Below are positions 2,586 through 29,323 of a stretch of 64,000 nt of DNA, piece after piece. Each line of letters starts with the position of its first letter. The stretch's first letter is position 1. A program made the position numbers and the translations under genes. The notes under the pieces are model-generated. The model saw only the letters and a list, made by a program, of their open reading frames with translations. It made no database searches and was not told where the DNA came from. The stretch is from Candidatus Sericytochromatia bacterium (GTDB taxonomy: Bacteria; Cyanobacteriota; Sericytochromatia; S15B-MN24; VGJW01): contig JAYKHS010000028.1 in NCBI GenBank assembly GCA_035285865.1, positions 96,001 to 160,000 of the forward strand, given 5' to 3'.

Positions 2586-2588
2586 GCG

Positions 2589-3437
2589 TCAGCCCTCGTC
2601 GTACTGGGGCACGGCCATCTCGGGTTCTGCACCGCCGAGGCCCGCCGTGGGGCCTGCGTTGCGTCGGGTCTTTGCCGAGGCCCGGATCGTCTTGCGGGTG
2701 GACGGGGGCAGGCTGACCTGAAGGCGTTCGTTGATCAGCCTCGGGTTCGCACCCGCTTGCATGGCGAGGATGATCTCGACCATGACCCAGCGGATGCGCA
2801 GTTCCTCCTCCGAGTTCTTGCGCAGCTTGTTGGCCAGCGGCAGAAAGAACAGGTTGGCGGCACCGACACCATAGAGGGTGGCCACCATGGCCGTCGCGAT
2901 TTCGGGGCCGAGTTGCTCCGGTTTGTCGAGGTTTCCGAGGACGGAGACCATGCTCAGGACCGTACCGAGGATGCCCAAGGTCGGACAGTAGGCCCCCAAG
3001 GACTCAAATACCGCAATGTTGGTACGGTGTCGGCCCCGTATCGCGAGCATCTCGGCCTCGAGCAGGTCCTGGATCTCCTGAGAGTCGAAGCCTTCCGTGA
3101 TGTACTGCATCCCGCGCTTCAGGAACGGATCCTCGATGTTGCCGATGTCCTTCATCGTGCCCTGGATGCCGGCCGTGCGCAGACGGGTGGAGAGCTTCAT
3201 GAGCTTGGCCACCACTTCGACCATCTCGATGCTGGCAGGTTTGAGCGCTTCCCAAGTCAGGCGCGGGATGGCCAGGACCCGATCGGCGGGAAAGGACATG
3301 AACGCCGCAGTTGCCGACCCGCCCAGCACGATGACGAAGGCATGCCACGACCACAGGGCGGCGGCGCTGCCGCCTTGCAGGGCCAGGGCGCTGAGCAGGA
3401 AGAAGATGAGGGCCACGAGGCCGAACATGTTCCGCAT
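2589..3437 (-). CDS. motA: Flagellar stator protein MotA
   Basis: AFVIVLGGS, DPFLKRG, PTLGILGTVL, ATLYGVGAANLFFLPLANKL; directly upstream of motB. Confidence 0.93.
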   Translation of the reverse strand: MRNMFGLVALIFFLLSALALQGGSAAALWSWHAFVIVLGGSATAAFMSFPADRVLAIPRLTWEALKPASIEMVEVVAKLMKLSTRLRTAGIQGTMKDIGNIEDPFLKRGMQYITEGFDSQEIQDLLEAEMLAIRGRHRTNIAVFESLGAYCPTLGILGTVLSMVSVLGNLDKPEQLGPEIATAMVATLYGVGAANLFFLPLANKLRKNSEEELRIRWVMVEIILAMQAGANPRLINERLQVSLPPSTRKTIRASAKTRRNAGPTAGLGGAEPEMAVPQYDEG

Positions 3438-12847: not shown

Positions 12848-14449
12848 ATGAGTATTTCGGACAAGGGATTGCTGGCGTTGGGGCTCGGTGGCCTCGGGCA
12901 GGTCCACCTGAACCTGTCGCGTGCCGCCCTGATTGAAGAGGCCATCAAGCGTGGCGAGGGGCGCCTGTCTGCGGGAGGCGCGCTGGTCTGCGAGACCGGC
13001 CATCACACCGGACGTTCCCCCAATGACAAGTTCATCGTCGAAGAACCGTCGTCCAAGGATCGCATCTGGTGGGGCAAGGTCAATCGGCCAGTGTCCGAGG
13101 AGACCTTCGATCGCCTCCTGGGGCGTGTGCAGGCCTACCTTCAGGGTCGCGAGGTCTTCGTCCAGGACCTTTTCGCCGGGGCCGATCCCCAGTTCCGCCT
13201 CCCGATCCGCGTCGTGACCCAGCACGCTTGGCATGCCGCCTTTGCGAACAACATGTTCGTCCGGCCTTCCGGCACCGAGCGCGAGGGCCTGGAGGCCGAG
13301 GCCACGGTCCTGCATGTGCCTGATTTCGAGGCCGTTCCTGAGCTTGATGGCACGAACAGCAGCACGTTCATCATGGTCCACTTCGGACGCCGACTGGTCC
13401 TGATTGGCGGCACGCAGTACGCAGGCGAAATCAAGAAGTCCATCTTCACGTTGATGAACTACCTGCTGCCGCAGCGCGGCGTCATGAGCATGCACGCTTC
13501 CTCCAACATCGGGGCTCAGGGTGACGTGGCGGTGTTCTTCGGTCTTTCCGGAACCGGCAAGACCACCCTGTCCGCCGATCCGGACCGCAAGCTCATCGGC
13601 GACGACGAGCATGGCTGGGCTGATGGCGGTGTCTTCAACGTCGAGGGCGGTTGCTACGCCAAGGTCATCAAGCTTTCGCGGACTGCCGAGCCTGAAATCT
13701 ATGCCACAACGGCCATGCACGGCACCATCCTCGAGAACGTGGTGATGGACCCCGTGAACCGTCAGCTCGATTTGGACAGCGATGCCCGGACCGAGAACAC
13801 GCGTGCTGCCTACCAGCTGGATGCCATCCCAAACTACGAGTCCACCGGCAAGGGTGGGCATCCTCGGACCATCCTGATGCTGACCTGCGATGCCTTCGGC
13901 GTGATGCCGCCGCTGGCCAAGCTGACGCCCGAGCAGGCCATGTACCACTTTCTCGCCGGCTACACGGCCAAGGTCGCGGGCACCGAGCGGGGGGTCAAGG
14001 AGCCTTCGGCCACCTTCAGCACCTGCTTCGGTGCGCCCTTCATGTCGTTGCATCCCACCGTCTATGCCAAGCTGCTTGGCGAGAAGATCGCCCGGCACGG
14101 CACCACCTGCTACCTGGTCAACACGGGCTGGAGCGGCGGCGCCTACGGCGTCGGCAGCCGCATGAAGATTGCGCACACCCGTGCCTTGGTCCGTGCGGCG
14201 CTATCCGGCGAGTTGGACAAGGCCGAGTTCGAGCAGGAAGCCGCCTTCGGTTTCCAGGTGCCCAAGGCCGTCGATGGCGTACCTGCCGAGGTCTTGCTGC
14301 CCCGCAACACCTGGACGGACAAGGCTGCCTATGATGCCACCGCTGCAAGGCTCTCGGGCATGTTCCGCGACGCCATCGCCCAGTTCGAGGGCATGGTGGA
14401 CGGGCACATCCTCGAGGCGGGTCCGAAGGCCATCGCCGCCGCCCACTGA
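12848..14449 (+). CDS. pckA: Phosphoenolpyruvate carboxykinase (ATP)
   Basis: TGRSPNDKF, YAGEIKKS, FFGLSGTGKTTLSADP, LIGDDEHGW, EGGCYAK. Confidence 0.97.
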   Translation: MSISDKGLLALGLGGLGQVHLNLSRAALIEEAIKRGEGRLSAGGALVCETGHHTGRSPNDKFIVEEPSSKDRIWWGKVNRPVSEETFDRLLGRVQAYLQGREVFVQDLFAGADPQFRLPIRVVTQHAWHAAFANNMFVRPSGTEREGLEAEATVLHVPDFEAVPELDGTNSSTFIMVHFGRRLVLIGGTQYAGEIKKSIFTLMNYLLPQRGVMSMHASSNIGAQGDVAVFFGLSGTGKTTLSADPDRKLIGDDEHGWADGGVFNVEGGCYAKVIKLSRTAEPEIYATTAMHGTILENVVMDPVNRQLDLDSDARTENTRAAYQLDAIPNYESTGKGGHPRTILMLTCDAFGVMPPLAKLTPEQAMYHFLAGYTAKVAGTERGVKEPSATFSTCFGAPFMSLHPTVYAKLLGEKIARHGTTCYLVNTGWSGGAYGVGSRMKIAHTRALVRAALSGELDKAEFEQEAAFGFQVPKAVDGVPAEVLLPRNTWTDKAAYDATAARLSGMFRDAIAQFEGMVDGHILEAGPKAIAAAH

Positions 14450-14481
14450 CCGGTGTCCGAAACGCGAGCTGTGCCGCTCCT

Positions 14482-16176
14482 TCAGAGGCGCAGCTCGCGT
14501 TTCAGTTCCGCGAGGCTCGTCTGGACAGCGTCCGCCGTCAGCTCGGCATAGCGGGCCGGCAGATAGCGTCGGCTCGAGCTTTCGTAAACGGCGAGCAGTT
14601 CCATGAACCGGATCATGGAGGTGTTGCGGTTCGGCACGAACTCGTCCAAGGCCGCGAGGACATGTTCGGCGGCCAGGGGGAGGCCACCTGCCCCGGCCTC
14701 CTCGGCGAGACGCGCGGCAAGCAAGAGGACGGCCTCGATTTCCGCGGCCGAATAGCCTTCCGTGCGGCTGGCGAAGGTGTCGGCGTCCCAGTTCTCGGCG
14801 GTGGCCAGGCGATGCTTGCGGAGCTGTGCCTGCAGGATGCGCAAGCGTTCTTCCTCCTGCCACGGCAGGAAGAAGGGAATCTTCTCGTCGAAACGGCCCG
14901 GGCGCTTGAGGTCGATGTCGAGCTTGTCCGGGCGATTGCTCATCACCATCCAGAGCACCTTGCCCCGCTGGCTGGTGTCGCTCATGAAGGTCTTGAGTCG
15001 CGCGAACACTCGGGAAGAGACGCCTGAGTCCCCGTCTTCCCCTCCCAGCGCGCGGTCCACTTCATCCACGAGGACGAGGACCGATCCCAGACCTCGGATC
15101 ATGCCCAGGATCTTTTCGAGGTTGGCTTCGGTAGAGCCTACCCAGCGATCGCGGAAATTCTTCAAGGCCAGGCAAGTGAGTCCCGAGTCGCGCGCGAAGG
15201 CTTCGGCAAGCCAGGTCTTGCCCGTGCCCATGGGGCCCACGAGGAAGATGCCCATCGGCACCTCGCGATGGCGTCCGTCGTGGATGGCGCGCGCGATGCG
15301 CTCCAGCCGCCGTTTCACGGCATCCTGTCCGCCGACCGCTTCAAGGCCATGGTCGGGCTCGATGAGTTCCACCAGACCATGGCATTCCTGTTCGATGATC
15401 TCCTTGCGCTTGCGCGCCAGCATGCCGAGGTCAAGAGGCGTTCTTTGTCCCTTGGCCCAGCGCACGATGCCCTCCAGCTGGATCCGCCGGAGCCCGCTGG
15501 ACAAGCGGGCGAGCTGGGGAAGGGGAGCCCCTGCCGCCACTTCATGGCGCTGGAGGGCGCGTTCGAGGAATGCGTGGCGTTCGCCTTCGTCCGGCAGGGG
15601 GATCTCGATGGGGATGACTTGAGCGTTGCGCACCACTCTCTGGTTGACGCTGCCGAGCTGTTCGGCAACCAGCAGGATGATGTTGTGCGAGTGCAGCATC
15701 CGGGGTTCGTGGGCCCACCGCTCCAAGGTCACGAGCGCGGCACGATCGTCGGCGGACATGTGCGCGGGTTCTCCGGCAGGGACCAGCGTCTCGACGTAGT
15801 CGATGACCAGTCCGCAGCGTTGGCCTGGCAAGGAAAGGAAGGCCTCGAGCTGGGGCAGCACCCGGCGGGCCTCGCGCACGCCCTCCGTCAAGGGGGGCTC
15901 GCCCGTCAGGGCTTGCCGCACCTCGCCCGCCGTGCGGGCCTTGTCCCGCATGGCGGGACTGGCGAAGGTCAGGCCCTCCGAGATGTCATAGCGCAGGACG
16001 ATGTCCTTGGCGGGCTTGAGCAGCGCTTCTTCAAGGAAGGTGGCGAGCGGTACGTCCTGATCCTGCCACGGCACGAGGTCTCGGACATTGCCGTGAAGGA
16101 GGAACTGCACGGCCTCACCGGCCAGGTAGCGGCTGCGGAGGTCTTCGGCCCAGGCCGGTAGCACGGGAGGATTCAC
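14482..16176 (-). CDS. AAA+ ATPase (degenerate N-terminal module + classical AAA domain)
   Basis: Walker A GPMGTGKT, pore loop RWVG, Walker B VLVDEVD, SRH SNRPDKLD..LKRPGRFD. Confidence 0.9.
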   Translation of the reverse strand: MNPPVLPAWAEDLRSRYLAGEAVQFLLHGNVRDLVPWQDQDVPLATFLEEALLKPAKDIVLRYDISEGLTFASPAMRDKARTAGEVRQALTGEPPLTEGVREARRVLPQLEAFLSLPGQRCGLVIDYVETLVPAGEPAHMSADDRAALVTLERWAHEPRMLHSHNIILLVAEQLGSVNQRVVRNAQVIPIEIPLPDEGERHAFLERALQRHEVAAGAPLPQLARLSSGLRRIQLEGIVRWAKGQRTPLDLGMLARKRKEIIEQECHGLVELIEPDHGLEAVGGQDAVKRRLERIARAIHDGRHREVPMGIFLVGPMGTGKTWLAEAFARDSGLTCLALKNFRDRWVGSTEANLEKILGMIRGLGSVLVLVDEVDRALGGEDGDSGVSSRVFARLKTFMSDTSQRGKVLWMVMSNRPDKLDIDLKRPGRFDEKIPFFLPWQEEERLRILQAQLRKHRLATAENWDADTFASRTEGYSAAEIEAVLLLAARLAEEAGAGGLPLAAEHVLAALDEFVPNRNTSMIRFMELLAVYESSSRRYLPARYAELTADAVQTSLAELKRELRL

Positions 16177-17000
16177 GACCGGTCTTGCTCCTGCTGACGT
16201 TGGGTAGGCTGAGCGCCGGACGGACCGTCCTCCAGCGCCATTTCGAGGGCACGCATCTCGGCGAGGGTGCGCTCGGCCACGGTCAGCCCCGAGAACAGGG
16301 CCTCCAGATCCGTGTCCCGGGACGGATCGGCCTTCATGGCGAGGATCTGTTCATATGCGAGGTCAAGTGCGTCTTCCAGTACCTGGATGCGTGCCGCAAG
16401 GACCTGGACTTCGTCCTCCAATTCGCGAAGGCGCGCCTGACGCTTCTCAAGGATGGCGAGGTTTTCCTCGAGGGCCTCACGGTGCGCGTTGGATGCGGGG
16501 GACGCCAGGTCCCTGCAGACCTGATCGATTTCCCGGCGGATCCGTTGCGTGTCGTTCTGGCCAAGGTGAAGGCGTTGGCGATGCATCAGGCTGAGGAGCT
16601 GCAGGTGGGCATCTTCAAGGGCTTCGAGGCGCTCGAGCTCCGACATCATGAGGTCACGGGCCTGAGCGCCCTGCAGCACCAGCAGCTCGCGCAGGGCACC
16701 GATGCGTTCCCCGAAGGCCCTTGACTGCTTGGTCATCGCCGCGGACAGGTCGGCGCGCAGCGCCTTGCGCCGGGTTTCCCGTTCTTGATGTTCGCGGGTG
16801 ACGGCTTCGCGGGACAGGGTTTCGGCAACGTGCGTGCGCCAGCGCGGCAGCAAGGGAGCCAGCAAGAGCCAGATGCCCGATCCTAGTGCGGCGATGAGCA
16901 GCAGGCGCAGGCCCATCCGGCTACCTGTGGCGAGTCCCGTCAGCCCGAACAGCCCCACCAGAACCCACCAAAGCAGATGGGGCCCTGCCAGCAGGGTCAT
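16173..17000 (-). CDS. Membrane-anchored coiled-coil protein
   Basis: ATG 17000; two N-terminal TM helices then a long heptad-rich region; stop overlaps the AAA start (GTGA). Confidence 0.7.
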   Translation of the reverse strand: MTLLAGPHLLWWVLVGLFGLTGLATGSRMGLRLLLIAALGSGIWLLLAPLLPRWRTHVAETLSREAVTREHQERETRRKALRADLSAAMTKQSRAFGERIGALRELLVLQGAQARDLMMSELERLEALEDAHLQLLSLMHRQRLHLGQNDTQRIRREIDQVCRDLASPASNAHREALEENLAILEKRQARLRELEDEVQVLAARIQVLEDALDLAYEQILAMKADPSRDTDLEALFSGLTVAERTLAEMRALEMALEDGPSGAQPTQRQQEQDRS

Positions 17001-17031
17001 ACGCCAGCCAGCAGCCCCGAAGGCAGCGGAA

Positions 17032-17769
17032 TCAGGACTGGCCAAGGCTCTCGGACGACTGCCCCAGCTGACGCTCGGTTTCGGCGGCAGGCGCCTGAAT
17101 GCCGAGCTGGCGCTTGTACTCTTCCAGCTTGGCCTTCGCATCGACACTGCGCATCTTGTCATCGAGACTGGCCATCTTGCCGGACAGCGAGCTCTGGTTC
17201 ATGTCACGGGCCAACTCGGCCTGGGCTTCCGTCTTCGCGACGGATTCCCGGATACCGTCCAGGGCTTTCAAGTCCGCGTCCACGGACATCCCGGAGAGTT
17301 GTTCCTGAACCTTCAGGCGTGCCTTGGCACTCTCGTGGCGGGCGAGCGTCTGGTCCCGTTCGGACTTGAGCTTTTCGATCTCGGCCTTGAAGGACTCGAG
17401 GTCGTGCTTGTGGCGCTCGGCATCCGATGCGATGCGTTCGAGCTCTCCGCGCAGCCGCGTGATGTCCGCGTCGACAACGCCCTTGCGCTCGACGGCCTGA
17501 AGGGCCGTGGCCTCATCACCGGCCTGCAGGAACTGGGGAATGCGGGCCTCGAGCGCCGTCGACTCGCTCAGACGATCCTCGAGCTCCTTTTGGGTCTTGT
17601 TCTTGAGGTGGACGATTCCGCTCACGGCCTGCATCAGATTCTGGTACTGCTTCTCGCGGGCCTGGATGGCCGCATCGTAGACGGCGGCGGGGTTGCGTGC
17701 CTCAAGGCCACCGATGAACAGGCCCAAGAATCCCCGAACCAGGTTGACTACACGCTCCACCAAAGCCAT
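17032..17769 (-). CDS. PspA/IM30 (Vipp1) family protein
   Basis: N-terminal amphipathic helix MALVERVVNLVRG, LEARNPAAVYD, GDEATALQA, all coiled coil, ~245 aa. Confidence 0.85.
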   Translation of the reverse strand: MALVERVVNLVRGFLGLFIGGLEARNPAAVYDAAIQAREKQYQNLMQAVSGIVHLKNKTQKELEDRLSESTALEARIPQFLQAGDEATALQAVERKGVVDADITRLRGELERIASDAERHKHDLESFKAEIEKLKSERDQTLARHESAKARLKVQEQLSGMSVDADLKALDGIRESVAKTEAQAELARDMNQSSLSGKMASLDDKMRSVDAKAKLEEYKRQLGIQAPAAETERQLGQSSESLGQS

Positions 17770-17852
17770 CGGACGCCTGTCCTTCCTTGCGCGGGCTACT
17801 CCGCATGCGCCTTGTATCATGCCATGAACGCGCACTCCACGCCGAGACGGAC

Positions 17853-19208
17853 ATGACCCAGAAGATTGCTGCGCCCCGCGGTACCCACGACGTCCTCCCC
17901 CCGGACGAGCATCTGGTTGCGCTGGTCGAGGAGACGGCCGCCAGCCTGTTCGCTCGCCATGGCCTGCGCGAGATCCGGACTCCGATCTTCGAGGCTACCG
18001 AGCTCTTCGCCCGCGGCGTTGGCAACGAAACGGACATGGTCGCCAAGGAGATGTACACCTTCGTGGATCGGGGCGATCGGTCCCTGACGCTGCGCCCGGA
18101 GGGTACGGCTGGCGTCGTTCGGGCCTACGTGGAAGGGCGGCTGGATCAGGCGTTGCCGCAGCCGGCGCGCCTTTGGTACCGGGGAGCCATGTTTCGCTAC
18201 GAGCGGCCTCAGAAGGGCCGCCAGCGCCAGTTTCACCAGATGGGTGCCGAGGTCCTGGGCTCCGGTGCCGCGACCGTCGACGCCGAGATGATTGTCCTGG
18301 CCCACGACCTCCAGCACGCCCTGGTCGAAGCCGTCCGAGCTTGGTTGGTGGCCTGCGATGTCCCCGTGCCCGGAGATTTGCAGCCTGTCCCGCTCGAGGT
18401 TCGGATCAATACGCTTGGAGATGCGAGTTGTCGGCCGGCCTACAGGGATTCCTTGCAGGCATGGCTCAAGGATGGGGCGGAAGCATACTGTGGAGACTGT
18501 CAGCGTCGCATGGAGACCAATCCATTGCGTGTTCTCGACTGCAAGGTGGCTGCTTGTCGTGCCCGGAATGCCGGGGCACCGCGACTCGAGCCTTGTGGGG
18601 CTTGCGTGGAACACATGGCTCAAGTGCGTGCCCTGCTCGAAGCCGCCGAGGTCAGGGTGGTCGAGGATTCCACCTTGGTGCGCGGACTTGATTACTACAG
18701 TCGAACGGTCTTCGAGATGGTACCCGCGGGGGGCGGCGTCGCCGCACAGGCCACGGTGTGCGCGGGTGGACGGTACGACGGGCTGGTTGCCGAACTGGGC
18801 GGGGCAGAAACGCCTGCCTTCGGATGGGCGCTCGGGCTCGAGCGGACCGTGCAACGTCTCGAGTCCATGCTCGAGGGACTGGCTCCCGCAGACCGGGCAC
18901 GCTTGAGGGCGGATCGGCCCGTCCTTTACATGGGAGGTCTGGATGCCGAGGCCCAGCGCGAGGTCTTCAGGATGGGCATCGCATTGCGTCGGCTCGGACT
19001 GGCCGTGCAGTGGCTGCCCGTCCACGCGAAGCCGGATCGGATTCTCAAGGCTGCGCTCAGGACCGAGGCTCGTTCGCTGTTGCTCTTGGGCGGCGACGAG
19101 ATGGCATCCGGAGTCGTCCGAATCAAGGATCTGGTGAGCCGGGACGAGCGCCAAGTGGCTTGGCTGGCGGGCGATCTCGCTGCCGCCCTCGGTGGCGGCA
19201 AACCTTGA
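17853..19208 (+). CDS. hisS: Histidine--tRNA ligase
   Basis: APRGTHD, KEMYTF, LRPEGTA, FRYERPQKGRQRQFHQ, LVRGLDYY, GGRYDGL. Confidence 0.97.
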   Translation: MTQKIAAPRGTHDVLPPDEHLVALVEETAASLFARHGLREIRTPIFEATELFARGVGNETDMVAKEMYTFVDRGDRSLTLRPEGTAGVVRAYVEGRLDQALPQPARLWYRGAMFRYERPQKGRQRQFHQMGAEVLGSGAATVDAEMIVLAHDLQHALVEAVRAWLVACDVPVPGDLQPVPLEVRINTLGDASCRPAYRDSLQAWLKDGAEAYCGDCQRRMETNPLRVLDCKVAACRARNAGAPRLEPCGACVEHMAQVRALLEAAEVRVVEDSTLVRGLDYYSRTVFEMVPAGGGVAAQATVCAGGRYDGLVAELGGAETPAFGWALGLERTVQRLESMLEGLAPADRARLRADRPVLYMGGLDAEAQREVFRMGIALRRLGLAVQWLPVHAKPDRILKAALRTEARSLLLLGGDEMASGVVRIKDLVSRDERQVAWLAGDLAAALGGGKP

Positions 19209-19239: not shown

Positions 19240-20373
19240 TCAGGCGCACTGGATGGATGGTTCCGTGAACCGCGCGAGGGTGGGAAAGTGCTGGCGTGCC
19301 TCGGCTGCGACCGAGGATGCCTCTGAGCTCAAACCCGCCTGAAGCAGGCAATCCATCAGGTTCTCCCAGGCGTCCTGACGCAAGGGTTCGATCCTCACGA
19401 GTCCCTCGAGGCAACGGATGGCCCTCTCGGTCTCTCCAAGTTGGTGCAGGGTGACGGCGAGGTTGTTCATGGGTTCGGGTGCGTCCGGGTGATGTTGCAG
19501 GATCTGCTCGAAGACCTGTCGTGCCTCCCGGTAACGGCGGTGGGCGAAAAGTTGCTCGCCCACGGCATTGTGCAGACCGAGGGCTCGTTCGCGGTCCTCG
19601 AGGCCCTGCAAGCCGTGGATGACTCCGGCCGCTTCCGCGCTGCGGTAGGTTCGGAAGATTTGCGCGTTCTCGCGCGCTCCGCGTTCGCGGTTGGCGTGTT
19701 CCACGCTGGTCGGCGACTTGAGGTACAGGCCCAGGACTTCAGGGATGTGCAAGAAGGCGTGAGTTTGTGAGACGCGCAGCCAGAACTCGTAGTCGCCGCT
19801 GGTGACGAAGGAAGGATCGAAGAGCCCGAAGACGTCGTGCAGGGTGCGGCGCCACATGGGTTGGGGGCCCATGAAGCACCCTTCCTCGAGCAGCGTCGTC
19901 CGGTCCCACTCGCGCCAGTTGTAACGCCCGCAGGGCGTGCACGCGTTCAAGGTCTCGTTCTCGTGGAGGGTGATGAGCAGGTCCGCATAGACCAAGGCGA
20001 TGTCCGGATTTGCGTCCAGTGTTTCCGCCATCCGTTCCAGCGCATCGGCGCGGTGGCGATCGTCCGTGTTGGCGTTGGTGAGGTACTTGCCTTGCGCCAG
20101 CTCCACGCCTCGGTTCCAAGCCGCGTAGACGCCTTCGCGTTCCGGGGTCCTGATGTAGCGGATGTTGTTGTGATGTTGCTGGAACTCGCGCACGATGGCG
20201 CCTTCGTCTTCGGGGGATGCGCTGTCGATGACAATGATTTCGAGGCGCTCGCCCAGAGTCTGGGCCACGAGATCCTCCAGACACCCGCGCATGAAGCGCT
20301 CGGACTTGTACGTGGAGACGATGGCCGTCACCAGGTAGGGTGTCTCTGGGGCGTCTTCGGGTGATGCAGGCAT
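19240..20373 (-). CDS. GT2 glycosyltransferase with C-terminal TPR
   Basis: IIVIDSAS, AWNRG, NANTDD (DxD-like), GDYEFWLR; C-terminal NNLAVTL TPR. Confidence 0.88.
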   Translation of the reverse strand: MPASPEDAPETPYLVTAIVSTYKSERFMRGCLEDLVAQTLGERLEIIVIDSASPEDEGAIVREFQQHHNNIRYIRTPEREGVYAAWNRGVELAQGKYLTNANTDDRHRADALERMAETLDANPDIALVYADLLITLHENETLNACTPCGRYNWREWDRTTLLEEGCFMGPQPMWRRTLHDVFGLFDPSFVTSGDYEFWLRVSQTHAFLHIPEVLGLYLKSPTSVEHANRERGARENAQIFRTYRSAEAAGVIHGLQGLEDRERALGLHNAVGEQLFAHRRYREARQVFEQILQHHPDAPEPMNNLAVTLHQLGETERAIRCLEGLVRIEPLRQDAWENLMDCLLQAGLSSEASSVAAEARQHFPTLARFTEPSIQCA

Positions 20374-20536
20374 GGGTCCGATCCGGCTTGCTCGGGCAAG
20401 GGTTCTGTTGGCGGTCTCGTGCGGACCGGTTCAGAATTTCTATCGAATCGTATCCGGGTGACCTTGAGCCACGCCGGGATTTGCCGAACCAATAGAATGG
20501 ATCGACTTTCCCGTCGCCCTCGTCCGGAGATTTTCG

Positions 20537-21547
20537 TTGGCCGATGCCCCTCGTTCCATCCTCGTCACCGGCGCGGATGGCTTCATCGGCTCCCACCTGA
20601 CGGAAGCCTTGGTCCGGCGCGGGCATCGGGTCCGGGCCTTCGTCTTCTATAACTCCTTCGGTCGGCGCGGCTGGCTTGATGAGGCACCTGAGGACATCCA
20701 GGCCGAGCTTGATGTCTTTGCCGGGGACATCAGGGACCCCTACGGAGTCCGGAAAGCCCTCCAGGGTACGGACGTGGTGCTGCATCTCGCGGCCCTGATC
20801 GCGATTCCTTTCTCGTACCACTCTCCGGATGCCTACCTGGACACGAATGTCAGGGGTACGTTGAACGTGTTGCAGGCCGCCCGGGATCTCGGGCTGTCCC
20901 GCGTGGTTCATACGTCGACCAGCGAAGTCTATGGCACGGCCAAATTCGTGCCGATGACCGAGGAGCACCCCCTCCAGGGGCAGTCACCCTACTCGGCGAC
21001 CAAGATCGGGGCGGATCAACTCGCCTTGTCCTTCCATGCGGCATTCGGCCTGCCCGTTTCGGTGATACGTCCCTTCAATACCTACGGTCCGCGCCAGTCG
21101 GCGCGAGCCGTGATTCCAACCATCATTTCCCAGATTGCCTCCGGGATGCGCACCATTCGGCTCGGCTCCTTGCATCCCACTCGGGATTTCAGCTATGTGG
21201 CGGATACGGTCCGTGGCTTCATCGCGATGGCCTCGGCTGATGCGGCTGTTGGCCGCGTGGTGAACCTCGGCAGCGGGTTCGAGGTCTCCGTAGGGGACAC
21301 GGCACGCCTCGTGGCCGCCTGCATGGGAGCCGAGGTTGCGATCGAATCCGAGGATGCCCGGACACGTCCCGAGAAGAGTGAAGTGGAGCGTCTGTGGTCG
21401 GACAATCGCCTCGCCCGTGATCTGCTGGGCTGGTCCCCTGAATATGGCGGACTCGAGGGCTTCAGAAGAGGGCTCGAGGAGACGATCACATGGTTCGGGA
21501 AGTCCGTGGATCGGGTCGGCTATCGGCCGGACCGATACGTCGTGTGA
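20537..21547 (+). CDS. legB: NDP-GlcNAc 4,6-dehydratase, LegB-like
   Basis: GADGFIGSHL, HLAALIAIPFSY, TSTSEVYGTA, QSPYSATK, RPFNTYGPRQSARAVIP; TTG start after GGAG. Confidence 0.85.
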   Translation: MADAPRSILVTGADGFIGSHLTEALVRRGHRVRAFVFYNSFGRRGWLDEAPEDIQAELDVFAGDIRDPYGVRKALQGTDVVLHLAALIAIPFSYHSPDAYLDTNVRGTLNVLQAARDLGLSRVVHTSTSEVYGTAKFVPMTEEHPLQGQSPYSATKIGADQLALSFHAAFGLPVSVIRPFNTYGPRQSARAVIPTIISQIASGMRTIRLGSLHPTRDFSYVADTVRGFIAMASADAAVGRVVNLGSGFEVSVGDTARLVAACMGAEVAIESEDARTRPEKSEVERLWSDNRLARDLLGWSPEYGGLEGFRRGLEETITWFGKSVDRVGYRPDRYVV

Positions 21548-21557
21548 GGGAGGCTCC

Positions 21558-22265
21558 GTGCGTGCCGTGATCCTGGCCGGCGGGAAGGGTACCCGCCTCA
21601 GGCCATACACTCTCGTCCTCCCCAAGCCCTTGGTGCCCATCGGAGACTATCCCATCCTCGAGGTGGTGATCCGGCAACTGGCGGCGAGCGGGTTCACCCA
21701 CGTCACCATGGCCGTGAACCACCTCGCCGAGTTGGTCGAGGCGTTCTTCGGGGACGGTCGACGCTGGGGACTGAAGATCGATTACTCGGTCGAATGTCGG
21801 CCGTTGAGCACGATGGCGCCCCTCAAGCTGATTCGGGATCTGCCCGATGACTTCCTCGTGATGAACGGCGATATCCTGACGGATGCGCCCTTCGAGCGGC
21901 TCTATCAGGAGCATGTCGCCGGGGGCAATCTTTTCACCATTTCCTCCTACCAGCGGGAGGTGCATGTGGACTTCGGGGTCCTGGAAACCGATGGGAACGG
22001 GCTGCTTCGGGGTTTTCAGGAAAAGCCCGTGCAGCGCCATGATGTCAGCATGGGGGTGTATGTCCTGAGCAGGCGGGTGCTTGAACACATCCCTGATGAT
22101 GTGCCGTTCGGTTTCGATGACCTCATGCTGGCCTTGTTGGGCAAAGGTGAGAAGGTCCACCTGCGAGGACATGAGGGTTACTGGCTGGATATCGGACGTC
22201 CGGATGACTACGTCGAGGCGGTCGAGCAGTTCGAACGCCAGAAGCATGCGTTCCTGAGGCAGTGA
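21558..22265 (+). CDS. Sugar-1-phosphate nucleotidyltransferase
   Basis: ILAGGKGTRLRPYT..PKPL, VMNGDIL, WLDIG; GGAGG SD before GTG 21558. Confidence 0.9.
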   Translation: MRAVILAGGKGTRLRPYTLVLPKPLVPIGDYPILEVVIRQLAASGFTHVTMAVNHLAELVEAFFGDGRRWGLKIDYSVECRPLSTMAPLKLIRDLPDDFLVMNGDILTDAPFERLYQEHVAGGNLFTISSYQREVHVDFGVLETDGNGLLRGFQEKPVQRHDVSMGVYVLSRRVLEHIPDDVPFGFDDLMLALLGKGEKVHLRGHEGYWLDIGRPDDYVEAVEQFERQKHAFLRQ

Positions 22266-22266
22266 G

Positions 22267-23322
22267 ATGAGAATCAACAAGGGCAACATCAGCCTGAGCC
22301 GCCTGAAGCAGCTGGGCTTCCATTTGCGGCGTGGTCGTGGGCATCTGCCGCGGTACATGGTCAACCGCTTCAAGTGGCATGTCTTCCCGCGCATCCGGAA
22401 GGTGGCGGACTTCCCCGATCACGTCGATATCGAGATTTCGAGCGCGTGCGACATGAAGTGCCCCATGTGCTACACGATCACTGATGCCTTCAAGGCAAGC
22501 GTCAAGAAGGGGTTGATGGACTGGGATCTCTACACGAAGCTCGTGGACGAGTGTGCTCGGAACGGGGTGTATTCGATTCGCCTCAGCCTGCGGGGAGAGC
22601 CTTTCGTGCATCCCCGCATCATCGACATGATCCGGTACGCCAAGGAGAAGGGCATACGGGAGGTTTCCACGCTGACGAACGGGCTCAAGCTCAATCCCGA
22701 GAAGTTCACCCAAGCGCTGGAGGCTGGTCTGGATTGGCTGACGATATCCTTTGACGGCCTTGGCGAAACTTATGAGAAGATTCGGCGCCCGGCCAAGTTC
22801 GAGGAGGCCCTGGCCAAGATCCGCGAGTACAAGGCCATCAAGGATGCCCGTCAGTCCGTGAAGCCCGTCATCAAGATCCAGTCGGTCTGGCCGGCCATCA
22901 AGGACGATCCCGAGGCCTTCTTCAGTACCTTTGCGCCTATCGCGGATGAGGTCGCGTCCAACCCTCTGATCGATTACCTCCACAACGACCAGGAAATCGA
23001 GTACGAGGAGCGATTCGAGTGTCCGGTGCTCTACCAGCGGCTGGTGGTCGGCTCGGATGGTCGGGTGCTGCTTTGCGTCAACGATGAGATGGGCAAGCAC
23101 ATCGTGGGAGATGCCAATGCCCAGTCCTTGAAGGAAGTGTGGCACGGACCGGCCCTGATGCAGGCGAGGGCGGACCATATGCGGCATCTGGGCGTGGCGA
23201 AGTACGATGCCTGTCGCGAGTGCTTCCTGCCACGCAAGACACGTGCCGTGCCGACGGTGGTCGGGGGTACCAAGGTCGCGATGGAGGAGTACGTGAATCG
23301 ACCTCAGGAGGTCGGCAAGTAA
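22267..23322 (+). CDS. Radical SAM protein with SPASM/twitch domain
   Basis: CDMKCPMC (CxxxCxxC), GEP, TNG; C-terminal C...C...CREC. Confidence 0.92.
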   Translation: MRINKGNISLSRLKQLGFHLRRGRGHLPRYMVNRFKWHVFPRIRKVADFPDHVDIEISSACDMKCPMCYTITDAFKASVKKGLMDWDLYTKLVDECARNGVYSIRLSLRGEPFVHPRIIDMIRYAKEKGIREVSTLTNGLKLNPEKFTQALEAGLDWLTISFDGLGETYEKIRRPAKFEEALAKIREYKAIKDARQSVKPVIKIQSVWPAIKDDPEAFFSTFAPIADEVASNPLIDYLHNDQEIEYEERFECPVLYQRLVVGSDGRVLLCVNDEMGKHIVGDANAQSLKEVWHGPALMQARADHMRHLGVAKYDACRECFLPRKTRAVPTVVGGTKVAMEEYVNRPQEVGK

Positions 23323-23323
23323 C

Positions 23324-24187
23324 GTGCGCCTGGTGCTGACGGGGGCGACCGGATTTCTGGGGGCTGCCGCGGCACGTGCCTTCGGGGCCGCCGGTCACGA
23401 GGTCGTGCCCTTCGCCCGGTCGCTCGGGCACGACTTGGGCACGGGGCAGGCCGTGCCCGCCATAGTTGCTGCCGCACCGGACGCCATCGTGCACCTTGCC
23501 GGTCGTACCTTCGTGCCCGAGAGTTGGCGTGAGCCGGCCCTCTTCGTCCGGGACAACGTGATGGCGACCCAGGAGGTTCTCGATGCCTGTCGGTTGACCG
23601 GCGCTTCCCTGCTGCACGTCAGTGCCTATGTGTACGGGCAACCGTGCTACCTGCCCATCGACGAGCGTCACCCGGTCGCGCCGGGGACCCCCTACGCGCA
23701 CAGCAAGTGGCTGGCCGAAGAGTTGTGCCGTTTCCAGGCCGGCGCCTTCGGCGTGCCCCTTACGGTGTTGCGCCCCTTCAACATCTACGGACCCGGCCAG
23801 CGTCCGCCGATGCTGGTGGCCGATCTCGCGAGCCAGTTGCTTCGTGACGGCCGGATGAAGGTCCTGGATCTGGAGCCTCGGCGCGATTTTCTGCATGTGG
23901 ACGACTTCTCAGCCGCCTTGGTCCGGATTCTGGATGCAGGCGCCTGGGGCCATACCTTCAATGTCGGGTCGGGACGTTCCCATTCGGTCCGGGAGGTGGT
24001 CGAGATTCTGGCCGCGGCCTGGCCTGGGGGTGCCGACTGGGCTTGCTCGGAACAGGTGCGTCCCGCCGAGGTTCCCGATGTGGTGGCCGACTGCGGGGCG
24101 CTTCGCGATGTCGTCGGCTGGGCGCCTTCCGTGACATTCGAGAAAGGGTTGCAGGCGATGATTCGCGAAATGCAGGTGCCGGCATGA
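23324..24187 (+). CDS. Extended SDR epimerase/reductase (4-keto-6-deoxy sugar reductase-like)
   Basis: TGATGFLG, YAHSK (YxxxK), RPFNIYGPGQ, RDFLHVDD. Confidence 0.85.
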   Translation: MRLVLTGATGFLGAAAARAFGAAGHEVVPFARSLGHDLGTGQAVPAIVAAAPDAIVHLAGRTFVPESWREPALFVRDNVMATQEVLDACRLTGASLLHVSAYVYGQPCYLPIDERHPVAPGTPYAHSKWLAEELCRFQAGAFGVPLTVLRPFNIYGPGQRPPMLVADLASQLLRDGRMKVLDLEPRRDFLHVDDFSAALVRILDAGAWGHTFNVGSGRSHSVREVVEILAAAWPGGADWACSEQVRPAEVPDVVADCGALRDVVGWAPSVTFEKGLQAMIREMQVPA

Positions 24188-25215
24188 CAGCCATCGTCGT
24201 TGAGGGGCGCCCCATCGGGCCGGGGCATCCGGTCTATGTGATTGCCGAAATCGGGGGCAATTTCACGACGGTCGATCAGGCCGTCGCGCTCATCGATGCT
24301 GCCGCGGCCAGCGGAGTCGATGCCGTGAAGTTGCAGACCTATCGGGCCGAGACCCTGTCCTCGACCCGTGCCATGTTCGACATGGAAAATACCGGCGTGA
24401 CCTCCCAGCATGCCTTGTTCAAGGCCTATGAGATCGATGCCGAGGCCCACGCATCCATCTTCGCGTACGCGCGGAGCCTTGGGCTTACGGTCTTCTCGAC
24501 GCCTTCTCATGCCACCGACGCCGACATGCTGCTCAGCTTGGGGGTGCCGGCCACCAAGGTGGGCTCGGACGATGCAGTGAATCTCCCCTTCCTTGCGCAC
24601 CTGGCACGTCAGGGACTGCCGATGCTGCTGTCTACCGGCATGTGCACGATGGCCGAGGTCGCGGACTCCGTTTCCACCATCCTGGGCGAGGGGCTCGACC
24701 AGCTGGTGCTGCTGCACGCCGTGACCAGCTATCCAACGCATCCGGATCACGTCAACCTGCGTGCCATGGTGGCCATGGGGCAGGCCTTCGGCTTGCCGGT
24801 CGGCTACTCGGATCACACGTTGGGGCCGGTTGCGTGCCTGGGTGCCGTCGCACTCGGCGCTTGCGTGATCGAGAAGCACTTCACGCTGGACAAGGCGGCC
24901 GAGGGCCCGGACCACATGCTTTCGGCCGACCCGGTCGAGATGGCGGCGCTCGTGGCCCAGGTGCGTGCGCTCGAGCGCATGTTGGGCGACGGGGTGAAGC
25001 GGCCTGCGGCAAGCGAGCGAACCACGCGGCTCAACAACCGCAAGAGTCTCGTGGTCCTTCGCGACCTGCAGGCCGGTGCGGTGCTGCGTGCCGATGATCT
25101 CGGGATCAAGCGCCCAGGTACCGGAATCGCCCCGAAGGACCTGCGTCAGGTCCTGGGTAGGGTCCTGCGCCGGGAGTTGGCTGCGGACGACGTCCTTACC
25201 TGGGATCACCTTTGA
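24184..25215 (+). CDS. NeuB-family nonulosonic acid synthase with C-terminal SAF domain
   Basis: YVIAEIGGN, DAVKLQT, LSTGM, VGYSDHT, IEKHFTLD, GPDH, KRPGTGI. Confidence 0.93.
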   Translation: MTAIVVEGRPIGPGHPVYVIAEIGGNFTTVDQAVALIDAAAASGVDAVKLQTYRAETLSSTRAMFDMENTGVTSQHALFKAYEIDAEAHASIFAYARSLGLTVFSTPSHATDADMLLSLGVPATKVGSDDAVNLPFLAHLARQGLPMLLSTGMCTMAEVADSVSTILGEGLDQLVLLHAVTSYPTHPDHVNLRAMVAMGQAFGLPVGYSDHTLGPVACLGAVALGACVIEKHFTLDKAAEGPDHMLSADPVEMAALVAQVRALERMLGDGVKRPAASERTTRLNNRKSLVVLRDLQAGAVLRADDLGIKRPGTGIAPKDLRQVLGRVLRRELAADDVLTWDHL

Positions 25216-25892
25216 GCCGCGTCGGTGTCGTGCTGCAGGCCCGGATGGGCTCGTCTCGCCTGCCCGGCAAGGTGCTGGCGCCGATCGCCGGAAGGCCGAT
25301 GCTGCTTCACATCCTCGACAGGCTGCGTGCCGCATCGACGCCGGATCGGATCATCGTGGCCACCAGTGTCACTCCTGCGGATGACGTGGTTGCGGGCCTC
25401 GTTGCCGACTATGGCGTGGCTTGTTACCGCGGTGATGCGGCGGACGTGCTTGATCGATATTGGCAGGCTACCCTCGTGCATGATTTGGCTCTGATCGTAC
25501 GGGCGACCGCAGACAATCCCCTGGTGGATCCGGTCGAATTGGATCGCCTGGTGGCGTTGCATGGCGCCACGGATGCAGACTACTGCCACGCGTTCGGTCG
25601 GCTGCCCTTGGGCGTTGGCGTGGAGAGCTTCTCGAGGGCTGCGCTCGCGCGTTCGTGGCGGGAGGGCCGGGCCCCGAATCATCGCGAGCACGTCAACGAG
25701 TACATCCAGGAGCGGCCGGACATTTTCGACATCCGCGCGTTGGACGTGCCTGAGGCCAAGGTTGCTCCGCACCTGCGCCTGACGGTCGACACCCCCGAGG
25801 ATCTGGAGCGTGCGCGGCGTGTCTATGACCGGCTTCATAGACCCGGTACCCAGATCCGGACCGAGGAGGTGATTGCGTTCTGCGCATCCTGA
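25212..25892 (+). CDS. SpsF-like cytidylyltransferase 1
   Basis: LQARMGSSRLPGKVL, RATADNPL, REHV, RLTVDTPED. Confidence 0.88.
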   Translation: MSRVGVVLQARMGSSRLPGKVLAPIAGRPMLLHILDRLRAASTPDRIIVATSVTPADDVVAGLVADYGVACYRGDAADVLDRYWQATLVHDLALIVRATADNPLVDPVELDRLVALHGATDADYCHAFGRLPLGVGVESFSRAALARSWREGRAPNHREHVNEYIQERPDIFDIRALDVPEAKVAPHLRLTVDTPEDLERARRVYDRLHRPGTQIRTEEVIAFCAS

Positions 25893-26863
25893 TTGCCTTC
25901 GAGGCCTCCCATCATCGTGGTCTCGGTCATCTGTTCCGAACGCTCACGCTGGCACGGGCGCTTCGGGGCCGTGGGCACGACATTTGCCTGGTCGCCAATC
26001 CCGAGCCTGTTGCGCGGAGCCGTTGCGCGTCCGATGGCTTCGAGTTGGTCGAGGTGCCTGGTCTGGACGGGACGGACTGGCAGCTTGCCCTTCTTCGCGC
26101 TCGTTCTCCGGATGTCTGGGTCGACGATCGTCTGGACACGACCCGAGCGCATGCCTTGGCACTGGGTGGCTTGCCGCGCCTCACCTTCGACGATCAGGGC
26201 GAAGGAGGGAGTCTCGCGCGTGCGAATGTCTGCGGGATGGTGCCGCCGTCTCCCGATGCGTCGGCCAATGCCTACCGGGGACCGGACTTCCTGGTGCTCG
26301 ACGAGCGCCTTACGACCTGGACACCAGCCGACCCGGCCGAGAAAGCGCCGTTGCTGCTGACCTTCGGGGGAAGCGATACCCACGGTCTCACGCCCAGGAT
26401 TCTGGCTGCCCTGGGGGGGGGATGGACCGGAGCGATGCCGGTTCATGTGATTACGGGACCGGCCTTTCGGCACGAAGAAGCGCTACTCGAAGCGTTGCGA
26501 CGATTTTCGGGCGAGATCGTCCACGCGTCTGCGGTGCCGGATTTGCTGCCTCTGATCGCCGGTGCCGGCATGGTCGTCTGTGCCGGGGGACTGACGGCCC
26601 ACGAATCGGCTGCGTTGGGCAGGGCCACCCTCGTCGTGGCCAGCGAGCCCCATGAAATTCCCCCGGCGCGTTACCTGGCCGATCGGGGCGCGTGCCGTTA
26701 CCTGGGCTATCGGGACGAAGATGTCGAGGCTCGCCTGGAGCGGGAGGTGCGTGCGTGGCTCGAGCATCCCGAAGCACGCGCGCGCGATGGCGCGATGGGC
26801 CGGGCCGTGGTCGACGGTCGGGGGCTCGAGCGCGTGGTGGCTATTCTTGAGGCGTGTGCGTGA
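25880..26863 (+). CDS. PseG/SpsG-like nucleotide-sugar hydrolase (GT-B fold); probable CTG start
   Basis: In-frame extension of ORF 26045..26863 gives LRILIAFEASHHRGLGHLFRTLTLA (G-x-GH motif); LTFGGSD; VDGRGLERV. Confidence 0.8.
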   Translation: MRILIAFEASHHRGLGHLFRTLTLARALRGRGHDICLVANPEPVARSRCASDGFELVEVPGLDGTDWQLALLRARSPDVWVDDRLDTTRAHALALGGLPRLTFDDQGEGGSLARANVCGMVPPSPDASANAYRGPDFLVLDERLTTWTPADPAEKAPLLLTFGGSDTHGLTPRILAALGGGWTGAMPVHVITGPAFRHEEALLEALRRFSGEIVHASAVPDLLPLIAGAGMVVCAGGLTAHESAALGRATLVVASEPHEIPPARYLADRGACRYLGYRDEDVEARLEREVRAWLEHPEARARDGAMGRAVVDGRGLERVVAILEACA

Positions 26864-27567
26864 GCCGTCGGCGGGTCGTCATCCATCAGCCGGACTTCCT
26901 GCCCTATCTGGGGTTCTTCGACCGGCTGCTCGACTGCGATTTGTTCATCCTTCTCGACCATGTGCAGTTCACCAAAGGTGGCTGGCATAACCGGGATCGC
27001 ATCAAGTCTCCCGAGGGACCGCGCTGGCTCACGGTTCCCGTCCAGTCGCCCACGGGGTTGGCCATCGCCGAAGTCCGCCTGACTGCTGATGCGACGTGGC
27101 CTGATCGTCATCTGCGGCAGTTGGCGGAAGCCTATCGCAAGGCGCCCGGCTACGCCGAGGTTCGGGGAAGCCTGGAGGCACTCTATCGGGACCTGCCTGC
27201 GGGCCTCGCGGATTTCAACATGCGGGGACTGGTGTGGCTGATGGAGGTTTTCGGCATCACGGTTCCTGTTGTCCGCTCCTCCAGCCTCCGGCCGCAGGGC
27301 CGAAGCAATGCGATGCTTGTCGATCTGCTGCAGAAGGTCGGCGCCACCGAGTACCTGTCGGGGGTGGGGGCACGAGCGTACTTCGACCCCGAGGTATTCG
27401 CCAAGGTCGGCGTGCCCGTGCTCTGGCAGGATTTCCGGCATCCATTCCATCCCCAGCTGCACGGAGCCTTCGAGCCTTTCCTCAGCAGCATCGATCTGCT
27501 GATGAACCTGGGCCTGACAGAGGCTCGACGGGTGCTGAGAGAGGGGGCAAGGTCACCTGTGCGCTGA
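26860..27567 (+). CDS. WbqC family protein
   Basis: HQPDFLPYLGFF, LDHVQF, NRDRI, WLTVP, YLSG.GA..Y, LSSIDLLMN. Confidence 0.9.
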   Translation: MSRRRVVIHQPDFLPYLGFFDRLLDCDLFILLDHVQFTKGGWHNRDRIKSPEGPRWLTVPVQSPTGLAIAEVRLTADATWPDRHLRQLAEAYRKAPGYAEVRGSLEALYRDLPAGLADFNMRGLVWLMEVFGITVPVVRSSSLRPQGRSNAMLVDLLQKVGATEYLSGVGARAYFDPEVFAKVGVPVLWQDFRHPFHPQLHGAFEPFLSSIDLLMNLGLTEARRVLREGARSPVR

Positions 27568-27590
27568 GATCTCCCGGGATCCAATCAGGA

Positions 27591-28502
27591 TTATCTGTGT
27601 GCTGTCCCTGTCTTCCGGAGCAGATAGACGCTGTACATGCTGAAGGATCCTGGCCAAGTCCGGGCCAGGGCGTGGCATATACGGACCAGGATTGGGCTGC
27701 AACCGGATTGGGCCGTCAGGTCTTCGAGGATATTTTGGGGATGCTCCCTTCCTGACTCGCTTTCTGCCTTTCCGAAGGTGCGATGGTACTTGGCCATGCT
27801 CAGGTAGCGGACAGCCTCCAGAACACCATAATCGTCGCCAGTTTCCAGGACTTCCTCGATGATCAAGCCGGTATCCTGCAGTGCGTTGCGAACATCGTTC
27901 CTGGTGAAATAGACGGCCATGAAGTCTTCGGGCAACCGAGTTCGGGTCATTCGCGCCAGCAGGCGGGACAGCTTGATGGATGCGACAAGCAGCGGGGCCT
28001 GGTTCCAGACGATGAGGACCAACGTGCCATTTTCTGTCAGGATTCTTGACGATTCACGCAGCAATGCTTGCTGCGATTTTCGGTCTTCATAGAGGATCAG
28101 CAAGCTTGCCATGATGGCCATGTCGAAGCTTTTGCTCTCGATTCCGGTGTTGAACGCGTCTCCTGTGATAAATTTTGCTTCTGGATAGGATTTTTTAGCG
28201 GCAATTATGCTGTTTTCGGCATAATCTAGGCCAGTATATTCTATTTCTGGGAATATCCTAGAAATAGGCAGGTTTACTCCGTTACCGCATCCTATGTCGA
28301 TAATTCTTTGGGGGTTTTTTCTTAAAATTGCATTATATACGTGATTTATTGTATTATGGAATCTGTTTTTGACTAGGTGGTCCATGTTGGTGAAGTCGCT
28401 GCCGAACTCGCGTTCGTTGGAGAATCTCCTGTAGAAGGACTTGTAGTCATCGATGGGATTTTCGTCGTTGTGCTGGCGAAGGTAGCTGAAGGCACGAAAC
28501 AC
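27591..28502 (-). CDS. Class I SAM-dependent methyltransferase, inverted and partly AT-rich
   Basis: IIDIGCGNG motif I, GLD, GDA, RILTENG. Confidence 0.85.
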   Translation of the reverse strand: MFRAFSYLRQHNDENPIDDYKSFYRRFSNEREFGSDFTNMDHLVKNRFHNTINHVYNAILRKNPQRIIDIGCGNGVNLPISRIFPEIEYTGLDYAENSIIAAKKSYPEAKFITGDAFNTGIESKSFDMAIMASLLILYEDRKSQQALLRESSRILTENGTLVLIVWNQAPLLVASIKLSRLLARMTRTRLPEDFMAVYFTRNDVRNALQDTGLIIEEVLETGDDYGVLEAVRYLSMAKYHRTFGKAESESGREHPQNILEDLTAQSGCSPILVRICHALARTWPGSFSMYSVYLLRKTGTAHR

Positions 28503-28671
28503 CTGATACCTCTTGCCGGGATGTTCCCGAGAATTTTGCCTTGTGGGTGTTGCTGGAAAACTGTTGATGATACCGTCGAGACCGTGATCGCGCCCCGAAG
28601 CAGCGGTCGGCGGATCTTGTCCTTTGCCGGAAGGGTACGATCAGCATTCCCTGCGATGTGGAAGGATTGCC

Positions 28672-29301
28672 ATGAATGTTCTGGCCATAGGGGCCCACTT
28701 CGATGACATCGAGCTCGGCTGCGGGGGCGCCCTCGCCAAGCACGCAGCGGCAGGAGATCGGGTCCTTGCCTATGTGGCAACGGTGTCAGGATTCTCGAAT
28801 CCTGACAATCAGGTCGTTCGATCCAGCGAACAGGCGCTTGCCGAAGGCCGGATGGCCATGGACGTGCTCTGTGTGCAGCTCATTCCGGGAGGTTTTCAGA
28901 CCTTGCAGGTCGAGTTCACGGACGACCTGAACCGGGAGATCATCAGGATTGTCGAGCGAGAGCAGATCGACCTCGTCTATACACACTGGGCGGGAGACAT
29001 TCACCACGACCACCAATCAGTGGCGCGAGCCTCGCTGCATTCCTGTCGCCACGTCAAGCGCATGTTGATGTACCGGAGCAACTGGTACCACGCGACCGTG
29101 GACTTCCGCGGAAACTTCTACATCGACATAACGGACACCTGGGCCTTGAAGGAGAAGGCGATACTGTGCCATGCATCGGAAGTCGACCGGACGGCTCATC
29201 GGTGGATCGACTTCTTTCGCAATGAGGCGGAGAATGCCGGCCAGCGGATTGGAGTTCGCCGGGCGGAGGTGTTCGAGGTCGTGAAGTGGCTGTGGACGTG
29301 A
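28672..29301 (+). CDS. PIG-L/LmbE family deacetylase
   Basis: AIGAHFDDIELGCGG and HHDH motifs; C-terminal AEVF. Confidence 0.9.
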   Translation: MNVLAIGAHFDDIELGCGGALAKHAAAGDRVLAYVATVSGFSNPDNQVVRSSEQALAEGRMAMDVLCVQLIPGGFQTLQVEFTDDLNREIIRIVEREQIDLVYTHWAGDIHHDHQSVARASLHSCRHVKRMLMYRSNWYHATVDFRGNFYIDITDTWALKEKAILCHASEVDRTAHRWIDFFRNEAENAGQRIGVRRAEVFEVVKWLWT

Positions 29302-29323
29302 TTTGAGGAGGCATGAACGCGGC

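Follow-up and report, generated by a model that had tools for sequence, protein, structure and literature searches.

The window analysed here, a stretch of 64,000 nucleotides from a Candidatus Sericytochromatia genome, contains a three-gene operon encoding a PspA-family protein, a helical protein with two predicted transmembrane (TM) helices (the middle gene) and a tandem AAA+ ATPase. Sericytochromatia is a class of Cyanobacteriota without photosynthesis. All three genes lie on the minus strand, and the features on which we rely are the following:

17032..17769, minus strand: pspA, 245 amino acids (aa), with its ATG at 17769 and its stop codon ending at 17032; match to PF04012
17035..17082, minus strand: C-terminal tail of PspA, degenerate in the window's genus (an internal R-Q-L, then a short extension)
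16173..17000, minus strand: middle gene, 275 aa, ATG at 17000; two predicted TM helices, no Pfam or NCBIfam model
14482..16176, minus strand: tandem AAA+ ATPase, 564 aa, GTG start at 16176; AlphaFold2 (AF2) model and Foldseek
15361..16176, minus strand: ATPase module D1, about residues 1-272, AAA-like and predicted inactive; fold match and motif positions
14632..15354, minus strand: ATPase module D2, about residues 275-515, intact, with Walker A and B, pore loop RWVG, sensor 1 and Arg fingers

As described in a previous sequence-only reading of this DNA, the open reading frame (ORF) coordinates give three co-oriented genes, with 31 nt between pspA and the middle gene (17001-17031) and a GTGA overlap between the stop of the middle gene and the start of the ATPase (16176-16173). 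That reading had named a lack of synteny in other genomes as an observation that would refute it, and we found the order pspA/middle gene/ATPase in seven further genomes of the class.

The PspA of the window scores 62.6 bits against PF04012 (gathering cut-off 33.9), and its closest PDB matches are Vipp1/PspA (E = 1.6e-10). It is not a member of the E. coli-type equivalog TIGR02977, against which it gives 30.2 bits for a cut-off of 242.95. Across 41 genomes of the class, PspA scores split in two, with canonical proteins at 167-204 bits and divergent ones at 63-76 bits (one split canonical gene, in G008, and three sub-threshold rows are omitted). The window PspA is of the divergent type, a subfamily that branches apart from canonical PspA in a 56-row tree built with the tails excluded, and it was the single match in the window's genome (G000), where no second PspA was detected.

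An ATPase orthologue (E <= 1e-150) was present in 15 of the 41 genomes. Divergent PspA was found in 14 of these 15, the miss being a genome that is 75% complete, and in none of the 26 others. Both genes were linked in 11 of the 15; in G007 they are split at contig ends, and in G030 and G036 they lie apart (the ATPase gene of G036, at L013, G036:C406, is broken by a run of N). Within the phylum, the orthologue occurs in this non-photosynthetic class and was found in 0 of the 70 genomes sampled outside it; in oxygenic cyanobacteria, the family profile matched Ycf46 best (E about 1e-43). We also surveyed 121 genomes of a second phylum, that of G043, which is probably Myxococcota to judge from the label of a related locus. 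There, the ATPase (at >=43% identity) was present in 32 genomes and a deeper ATPase subgroup in three more. All 32 carry the divergent PspA subfamily, within 5 kb of the ATPase in only 10 of them, so the pair persists without an operon. Twelve further genomes of this phylum have a sister PspA and gave no ATPase in profile searches (12/12). All these counts include related, hence non-independent, genomes, and for each genome a part of the candidates was scored. The PspA and ATPase trees show similar groupings. Taken together, these results support a conserved core formed by the PspA-ATPase pair, with the middle gene as an optional addition. One subgroup also has, flanking the pair, a gene of the TerB family that is about 150-160 aa long (L057-L062, L186, L190, L199, L204-L207).

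PspAs of ATPase-bearing relatives typically end in K-[TSN]-[LMI]-COOH, separated from the last conserved PspA helix by a variable linker of 14-29 aa. In the form [KR]-x-[LIM]-COOH, the motif was found in 10/13, 32/32, 3/3 and 6/6 PspAs of ATPase-bearing genomes or loci (51 of 54 relatives), and 49 of the 51 have Lys at position -3. None of the 30 canonical PspAs and none of the 12 PspAs from ATPase-less genomes carries it, and the background in the window's own genome is 20 of 1897 ORFs. In the deeper ATPase subgroup, the very divergent operon PspA of G160 ends in K-T-L. Two pspA copies in tandem were seen in G163 (L077, G163:C380), with the tail motif on both. The tail and the ATPase were lost together in one event, because the ATPase-less PspA clade nests inside the tail-bearing clade (support 97/98 in the 56-row tree). 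Among the loci listed for this ATPase-less clade (L044-L055), pspA lies directly behind a sigma54-type response regulator and one or more histidine kinases, a neighbourhood checked with Pfam on two loci, and the clade has apparently switched to PspF-like transcriptional control. Threading AAA+ enzymes engage short motifs that a flexible linker presents at a free end, and the PspA tail would be such a site. A complex prediction of the G004 ATPase with the 35-residue tail of its PspA scored 0.30 (mark 0.32); run without controls, it counts neither for nor against binding.

The sequence-only reading had described a classical-clade AAA domain in the ATPase and had drawn a link to Vps4, which uses a Trp pore loop. 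The motif alignment bears out the aromatic pore loop RWVG and the second region of homology: PF00004 matches residues 310-435, and GPMGTGKT, LVDE, DRWVG and MSNRPDKLDIDLKRPGRFD are all present. That reading had overlooked a second, inactive AAA-like module at residues 1-270. In the AF2 model (predicted local distance difference test, pLDDT, 92.5), the ATPase aligns over its full length to D1+D2 of p97/Cdc48, with a Foldseek template-modelling score of 0.63-0.64 over about 590 columns, and conserved C-terminal helices follow D2. D1 is assigned from the fold match and from where its motifs lie: HGNVRD stands in the place of Walker A, DY or DF replaces the Walker B DE, and there is no Arg finger. 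It is predicted to be catalytically dead, and D2 is intact. Using hhalign, D1 showed a weak likeness to the Ycf46 N-domain profile (probability 57%, E 1e-4), and a profile-profile comparison of D1 with D2 was not significant (probability 2%). No match to MIT (at E<=0.1), Vps4_C or the Cdc48 N-domain was found in the ATPase, which reaches 64.9 bits against the CdvC model NF041006 (cut-off 650) and 99.2 bits against the CDC48 model TIGR01243 (cut-off 802.65).

In a 46-row tree of D2, which contains no Vps4 sequence and carries a long-branch warning, the PspA-associated ATPases form a single clade of 28 rows (support 100/99). Paralogues from ubiquitin operons and ATPases from Bacillales plasmids branch next to it (85/94), with Ycf46, CDC48 and FtsH outside. 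The AAA phylogeny proposed by the sequence-only reading, run here against Ycf46 and p97, places this bacterial clade apart from both. An aromatic-hydrophobic-Gly pore loop is also found in the ubiquitin-operon paralogue, the plasmid ATPases and CDC48, and is therefore not diagnostic of Vps4. Given its dead D1 and intact D2, its p97-like fold, the lack of MIT/Vps4_C matches and its separate clade, we identify the ATPase with the 'inactive AAA + AAA' protein described by Ravi et al. 2024, not with Vps4. The pore loop and the second region of homology noted in the sequence-only reading stand, and its link to Vps4 is not supported.

Outside the window, at G000:C3:116036-123413, the ATPase has a paralogue (about 31% identity over the full length) that stands first in an operon. 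The operon also encodes a vWA membrane protein, ThiF/E1, a small ubiquitin-like ORF, an E2-like and a JAB-like gene (Pfam check on the G013 copy, with weak E2 and JAB matches), and similar operons occur at L216, L217, L019 and L020. The paralogue is a p97-like tandem AAA+ within a bacterial ubiquitination operon. Bacillales megaplasmids (L114-L116) carry full-length ATPase homologues among hypothetical genes, with no annotated PspA at <=6 kb. We also noted homologues of 808-828 aa (P0043, P0048, P0069, P0072, P0113, P0114) with an additional dead-D1-like module, and rejected the reading of them as PspA fusions. At L147 (5175-8463) and L148, a stand-alone D1-like gene of 274-275 aa also lies directly upstream.

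The middle protein is predicted to consist of two N-terminal TM helices (by hydropathy) and a cytoplasmic helical bundle, and its AF2 model (pLDDT 89) is all helical. Its family is widespread, with 102 matches in a library of 50% representatives, and no consistent Pfam or NCBIfam match was found among 106 members. As to the 'divergent Snf7' label that Ravi et al. 2024 give to the middle gene, PF03357 or PF04012 matched 0 of the 106 and profile similarity to PspA gave an hhalign probability of 8.8%, which leaves the label unsupported. A fold search returned generic helical-bundle matches (top Z 10.3), with no ESCRT-III entry among the matches listed. The nearest named atlas cluster was Rv2743c/PspM (0.92, 207/256 features, the family being on 40% of members), which we take as a lead only; the PF25587 (PspM) hidden Markov model (HMM) matched nothing in the window's genome or among the 106 members.

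Between pspA and the ATPase, the middle gene was found in 8 of the 15 ATPase-bearing genomes of the class (including two short forms, one of them judged by eye). It lies away from the pair in G030 and G036, and was not found in any of the three genomes that hold the dyad alone (G012, G018 and G024). In the second phylum, 17 of 121 genomes carry it, 13 of them among the 32 with the ATPase. The three-gene 'minimal module' of the sequence-only reading is thus too strict, and the middle gene is accessory. In the eight loci retrieved in which it lies away from the ATPase, its neighbours, judged by eye, include a binding-protein-like gene in all eight and ABC genes in seven. It is possibly a remnant of a long operon. 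Its product is a candidate membrane anchor and may act as an adaptor. As a separate observation, an unassigned gene, about 220-260 aa long and amphipathic in appearance at its N-terminus, lies ahead of the binding-protein/ABC/2-TM operon, whether or not PspA is present (L256, L259, L260, L262, L263, L059, L063); the four that we tried gave no match in the window's genome.

Outside the operon, the flanking genes are hisS (divergent) and pckA (convergent), so there is no adjacent regulator. The earlier claim that PspF/PspBC or LiaRS-type regulators are missing accordingly holds for the adjacent genes, the whole genome not having been searched for them. No match to a sigma70-type promoter or a terminator was found within 14300-18000. 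Elsewhere in the window, we noted by eye a motA/motB-like pair (1749-3437) and a sugar-nucleotide/glycosylation cluster (19240-30000) that includes a stretch of lower G+C content (0.56 at 28001-30000).

Because PspA and the ATPase co-occur in two phyla, the tail tracks the ATPase, the AAA fold is tandem and the translocation motifs are intact, we propose that the ATPase is a dedicated, ATP-driven and tail-dependent remodeller of PspA polymers that arose independently of Vps4, with a probability of roughly 0.6. PspA would polymerise on stressed membrane, as PspA/Vipp1 biology suggests, and the ATPase, by analogy with p97-class AAA+ enzymes, would form a hexamer and thread its substrate. With its dead D1, it may hold PspA subunits by their free C-terminal tail, a putative recognition handle in view of the motif's distribution; the subunits would then be pulled through the D2 pore and the polymer taken apart. 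The middle 2-TM protein, from its adjacency and PspM-like layout, would probably serve as an optional membrane anchor that binds PspA or the ATPase. Disassembly, as originally suggested, is the best inference from the conserved pair and the similar tree groupings.

Several observations weigh against this proposal. The window's own genus is an exception to the tail rule: all four genomes keep the ATPase, with the terminal motif absent and the tail degenerate and extended, and the genus sits on long branches in both the PspA and the ATPase trees. In the deeper subgroup, the PspA of G155, one of two, lacks the motif. The joint loss of tail and ATPase counts as a single event, and shared descent alone may explain the similarity of the trees. 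Of 34 metagenome ATPase loci that include >=2 kb of upstream sequence, three have PspA next to the ATPase and one has the middle gene there. The middle gene can be dispensed with, and its association with the binding-protein/ABC operon is the closer one. Finally, the ATPase family is not PspA-specific, because its sister clades, in ubiquitin-like operons and Bacillales megaplasmids, serve other contexts.

One could argue that the ATPase instead extracts membrane proteins, or unfolds proteins for quality control, under regulation shared with PspA. PspA would seal or mark damaged membrane; the clients of the ATPase would be others (the 2-TM protein, ABC/binding-protein components or TerB-like partners), and the PspA tail at most a docking site. 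Such a role would suit the long operons, in which genes for a binding protein-OmpA, an ABC permease, an ABC ATPase and TerB are also present, the 2-TM gene directly upstream of the ATPase in 3/3 deeper-subgroup loci and in G048, G087 and G116, and the p97-like context of the paralogue in its E1/E2/JAB/vWA operon. We nevertheless find it unlikely, since PspA is never absent (32/32) and the 2-TM and ABC genes are lacking in many cases (the 2-TM gene being found in 13/32), dyad-only loci exist in G012, G018 and G024, and the binding-protein/permease set was not found in the window's genome (83% complete). A stoichiometric, PspF-like regulation of PspA, in which the ATPase would keep monomers off the membrane or chaperone assembly with no disassembly of polymers, seems improbable to us. 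PspF, an unrelated AAA+, does block PspA assembly when bound (PMC7619361), and the sigma54 response regulator and kinases in front of pspA in the ATPase-less clade are a hint of functional replacement; against this, no DNA-binding or sigma54 domain was matched in the ATPase, which, like AAA+ enzymes that translocate, retains a pore loop and Arg fingers. We give slightly less credit still to the idea that these are merely co-inherited stress genes whose tail serves another purpose, such as a tail-specific protease or a polymer contact. The degenerate tail beside an intact ATPase in the window's genus and the mostly unlinked pair in the second phylum would agree with it, whereas the strict co-presence despite the lack of linkage and the loss of the tail on the very branch that lost the ATPase argue otherwise.

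A remodeller dedicated to PspA would bear on how PspA polymers get recycled and, if true, would mean that ATP-driven ESCRT-III disassembly arose twice. A Vps4-like ATPase is described as seemingly absent in bacteria (a 2025 review, PMC7619361) and ESCRT-III+Vps4 systems as confined to archaea and eukaryotes (PMC10936438). A broader proposal, which we offer tentatively, is that an analogue of Vps4 evolved within bacteria: a tandem AAA+, sister to the ubiquitin-operon ATPases and Ycf46-like in layout, would recognise a K-T-[LMI]-COOH tag on one PspA subfamily and disassemble its polymers, this PspA being the sole ESCRT-III detected in the Sericytochromatia family studied and the 2-TM partner a remote PspM relative. 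The pairing of PspA with a tandem AAA had already been predicted in print, so the operon itself is not new. The new element is the tail motif, through which the prediction can be tested directly with two proteins; the PspA of the ATPase-less clade offers a built-in negative control for tail dependence. The titles and abstract openings that we covered, mostly outside subscription journals, describe no test of the ATPase or of the PspA tail motif. The available part of PMC11237479 does not mention the motif, and that of PMC9239133 has AAA only in its references.

Regarding known systems, the closest is that of Ravi et al. 2024 (PMC11237479), which predicts the pairing of PspA with 'inactive-classical-AAA + classical-AAA' (examples AEY64321/AEY64320 and OGG56892) and proposes ATP-dependent membrane remodelling for this context, in line with the previous remark that PspA/Snf7-AAA neighbourhoods had been noted computationally. 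In both systems, PspA neighbours an AAA+ of two domains, of which the N-terminal copy is dead, and a membrane-anchored helical gene is optional. Their long form (PBPB-OmpA, permease, ABC ATPase) is matched here in G116, G155, G091 and G160, while the three genes in the window make up a compact version that lacks the transporter; the comparison is by the descriptions in that source. Long-variant loci (L059, L201-L203) carry the TM-helical gene, and their ATPases fall in the same clade (100/99). In the mycobacterial ClgR-PspA-PspM system (PspM = Rv2743c), pspA is likewise followed directly by a 2-TM gene (PMC11237479 supplement). PspM is a proven partner of PspA at the membrane, where it retains a PspA species (bioRxiv 10.64898/2026.09.09.750162), and 'AAA' is absent from the accessible text of that preprint. 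The window differs in having no ClgR in its operon and in leaving the PF25587 HMM unmatched.

Cdc48/p97/VAT gave the top sequence and fold matches and share the D1+D2 layout, but the window ATPase has no N-domain, its D1 appears dead and it falls outside the CDC48 branch of the D2 tree. The protein that we take to be Ycf46, named from its sequence and its DUF1257/ycf35 neighbour, has the same combination of a dead N-terminal AAA-like module, to which the N-domain profile match refers, and an active D2. It forms a separate, fully supported clade with other neighbours: DUF1257 is not next to the ATPase of the window, and there is no adjacent PspA in the three Ycf46 loci listed.

With ESCRT-III/Vps4 (CdvB/CdvC), the system has in common a predicted polymer of ESCRT-III fold and a classical-clade AAA+ with an aromatic pore loop. 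ESCRT-III polymers carry a short conserved motif, the MIT-interacting motif (MIM), in a flexible C-terminal tail, analogous to the tail of PspA; the PspA motif differs in being three residues at the extreme C-terminus. The ATPases differ as well, since that of the window is tandem rather than single, lacks MIT/Vps4_C and scores one tenth of the CdvC cut-off. By this comparison, the system would work like ESCRT-III/Vps4 without being Vps4, its ATPase probably being not homologous at the family level.

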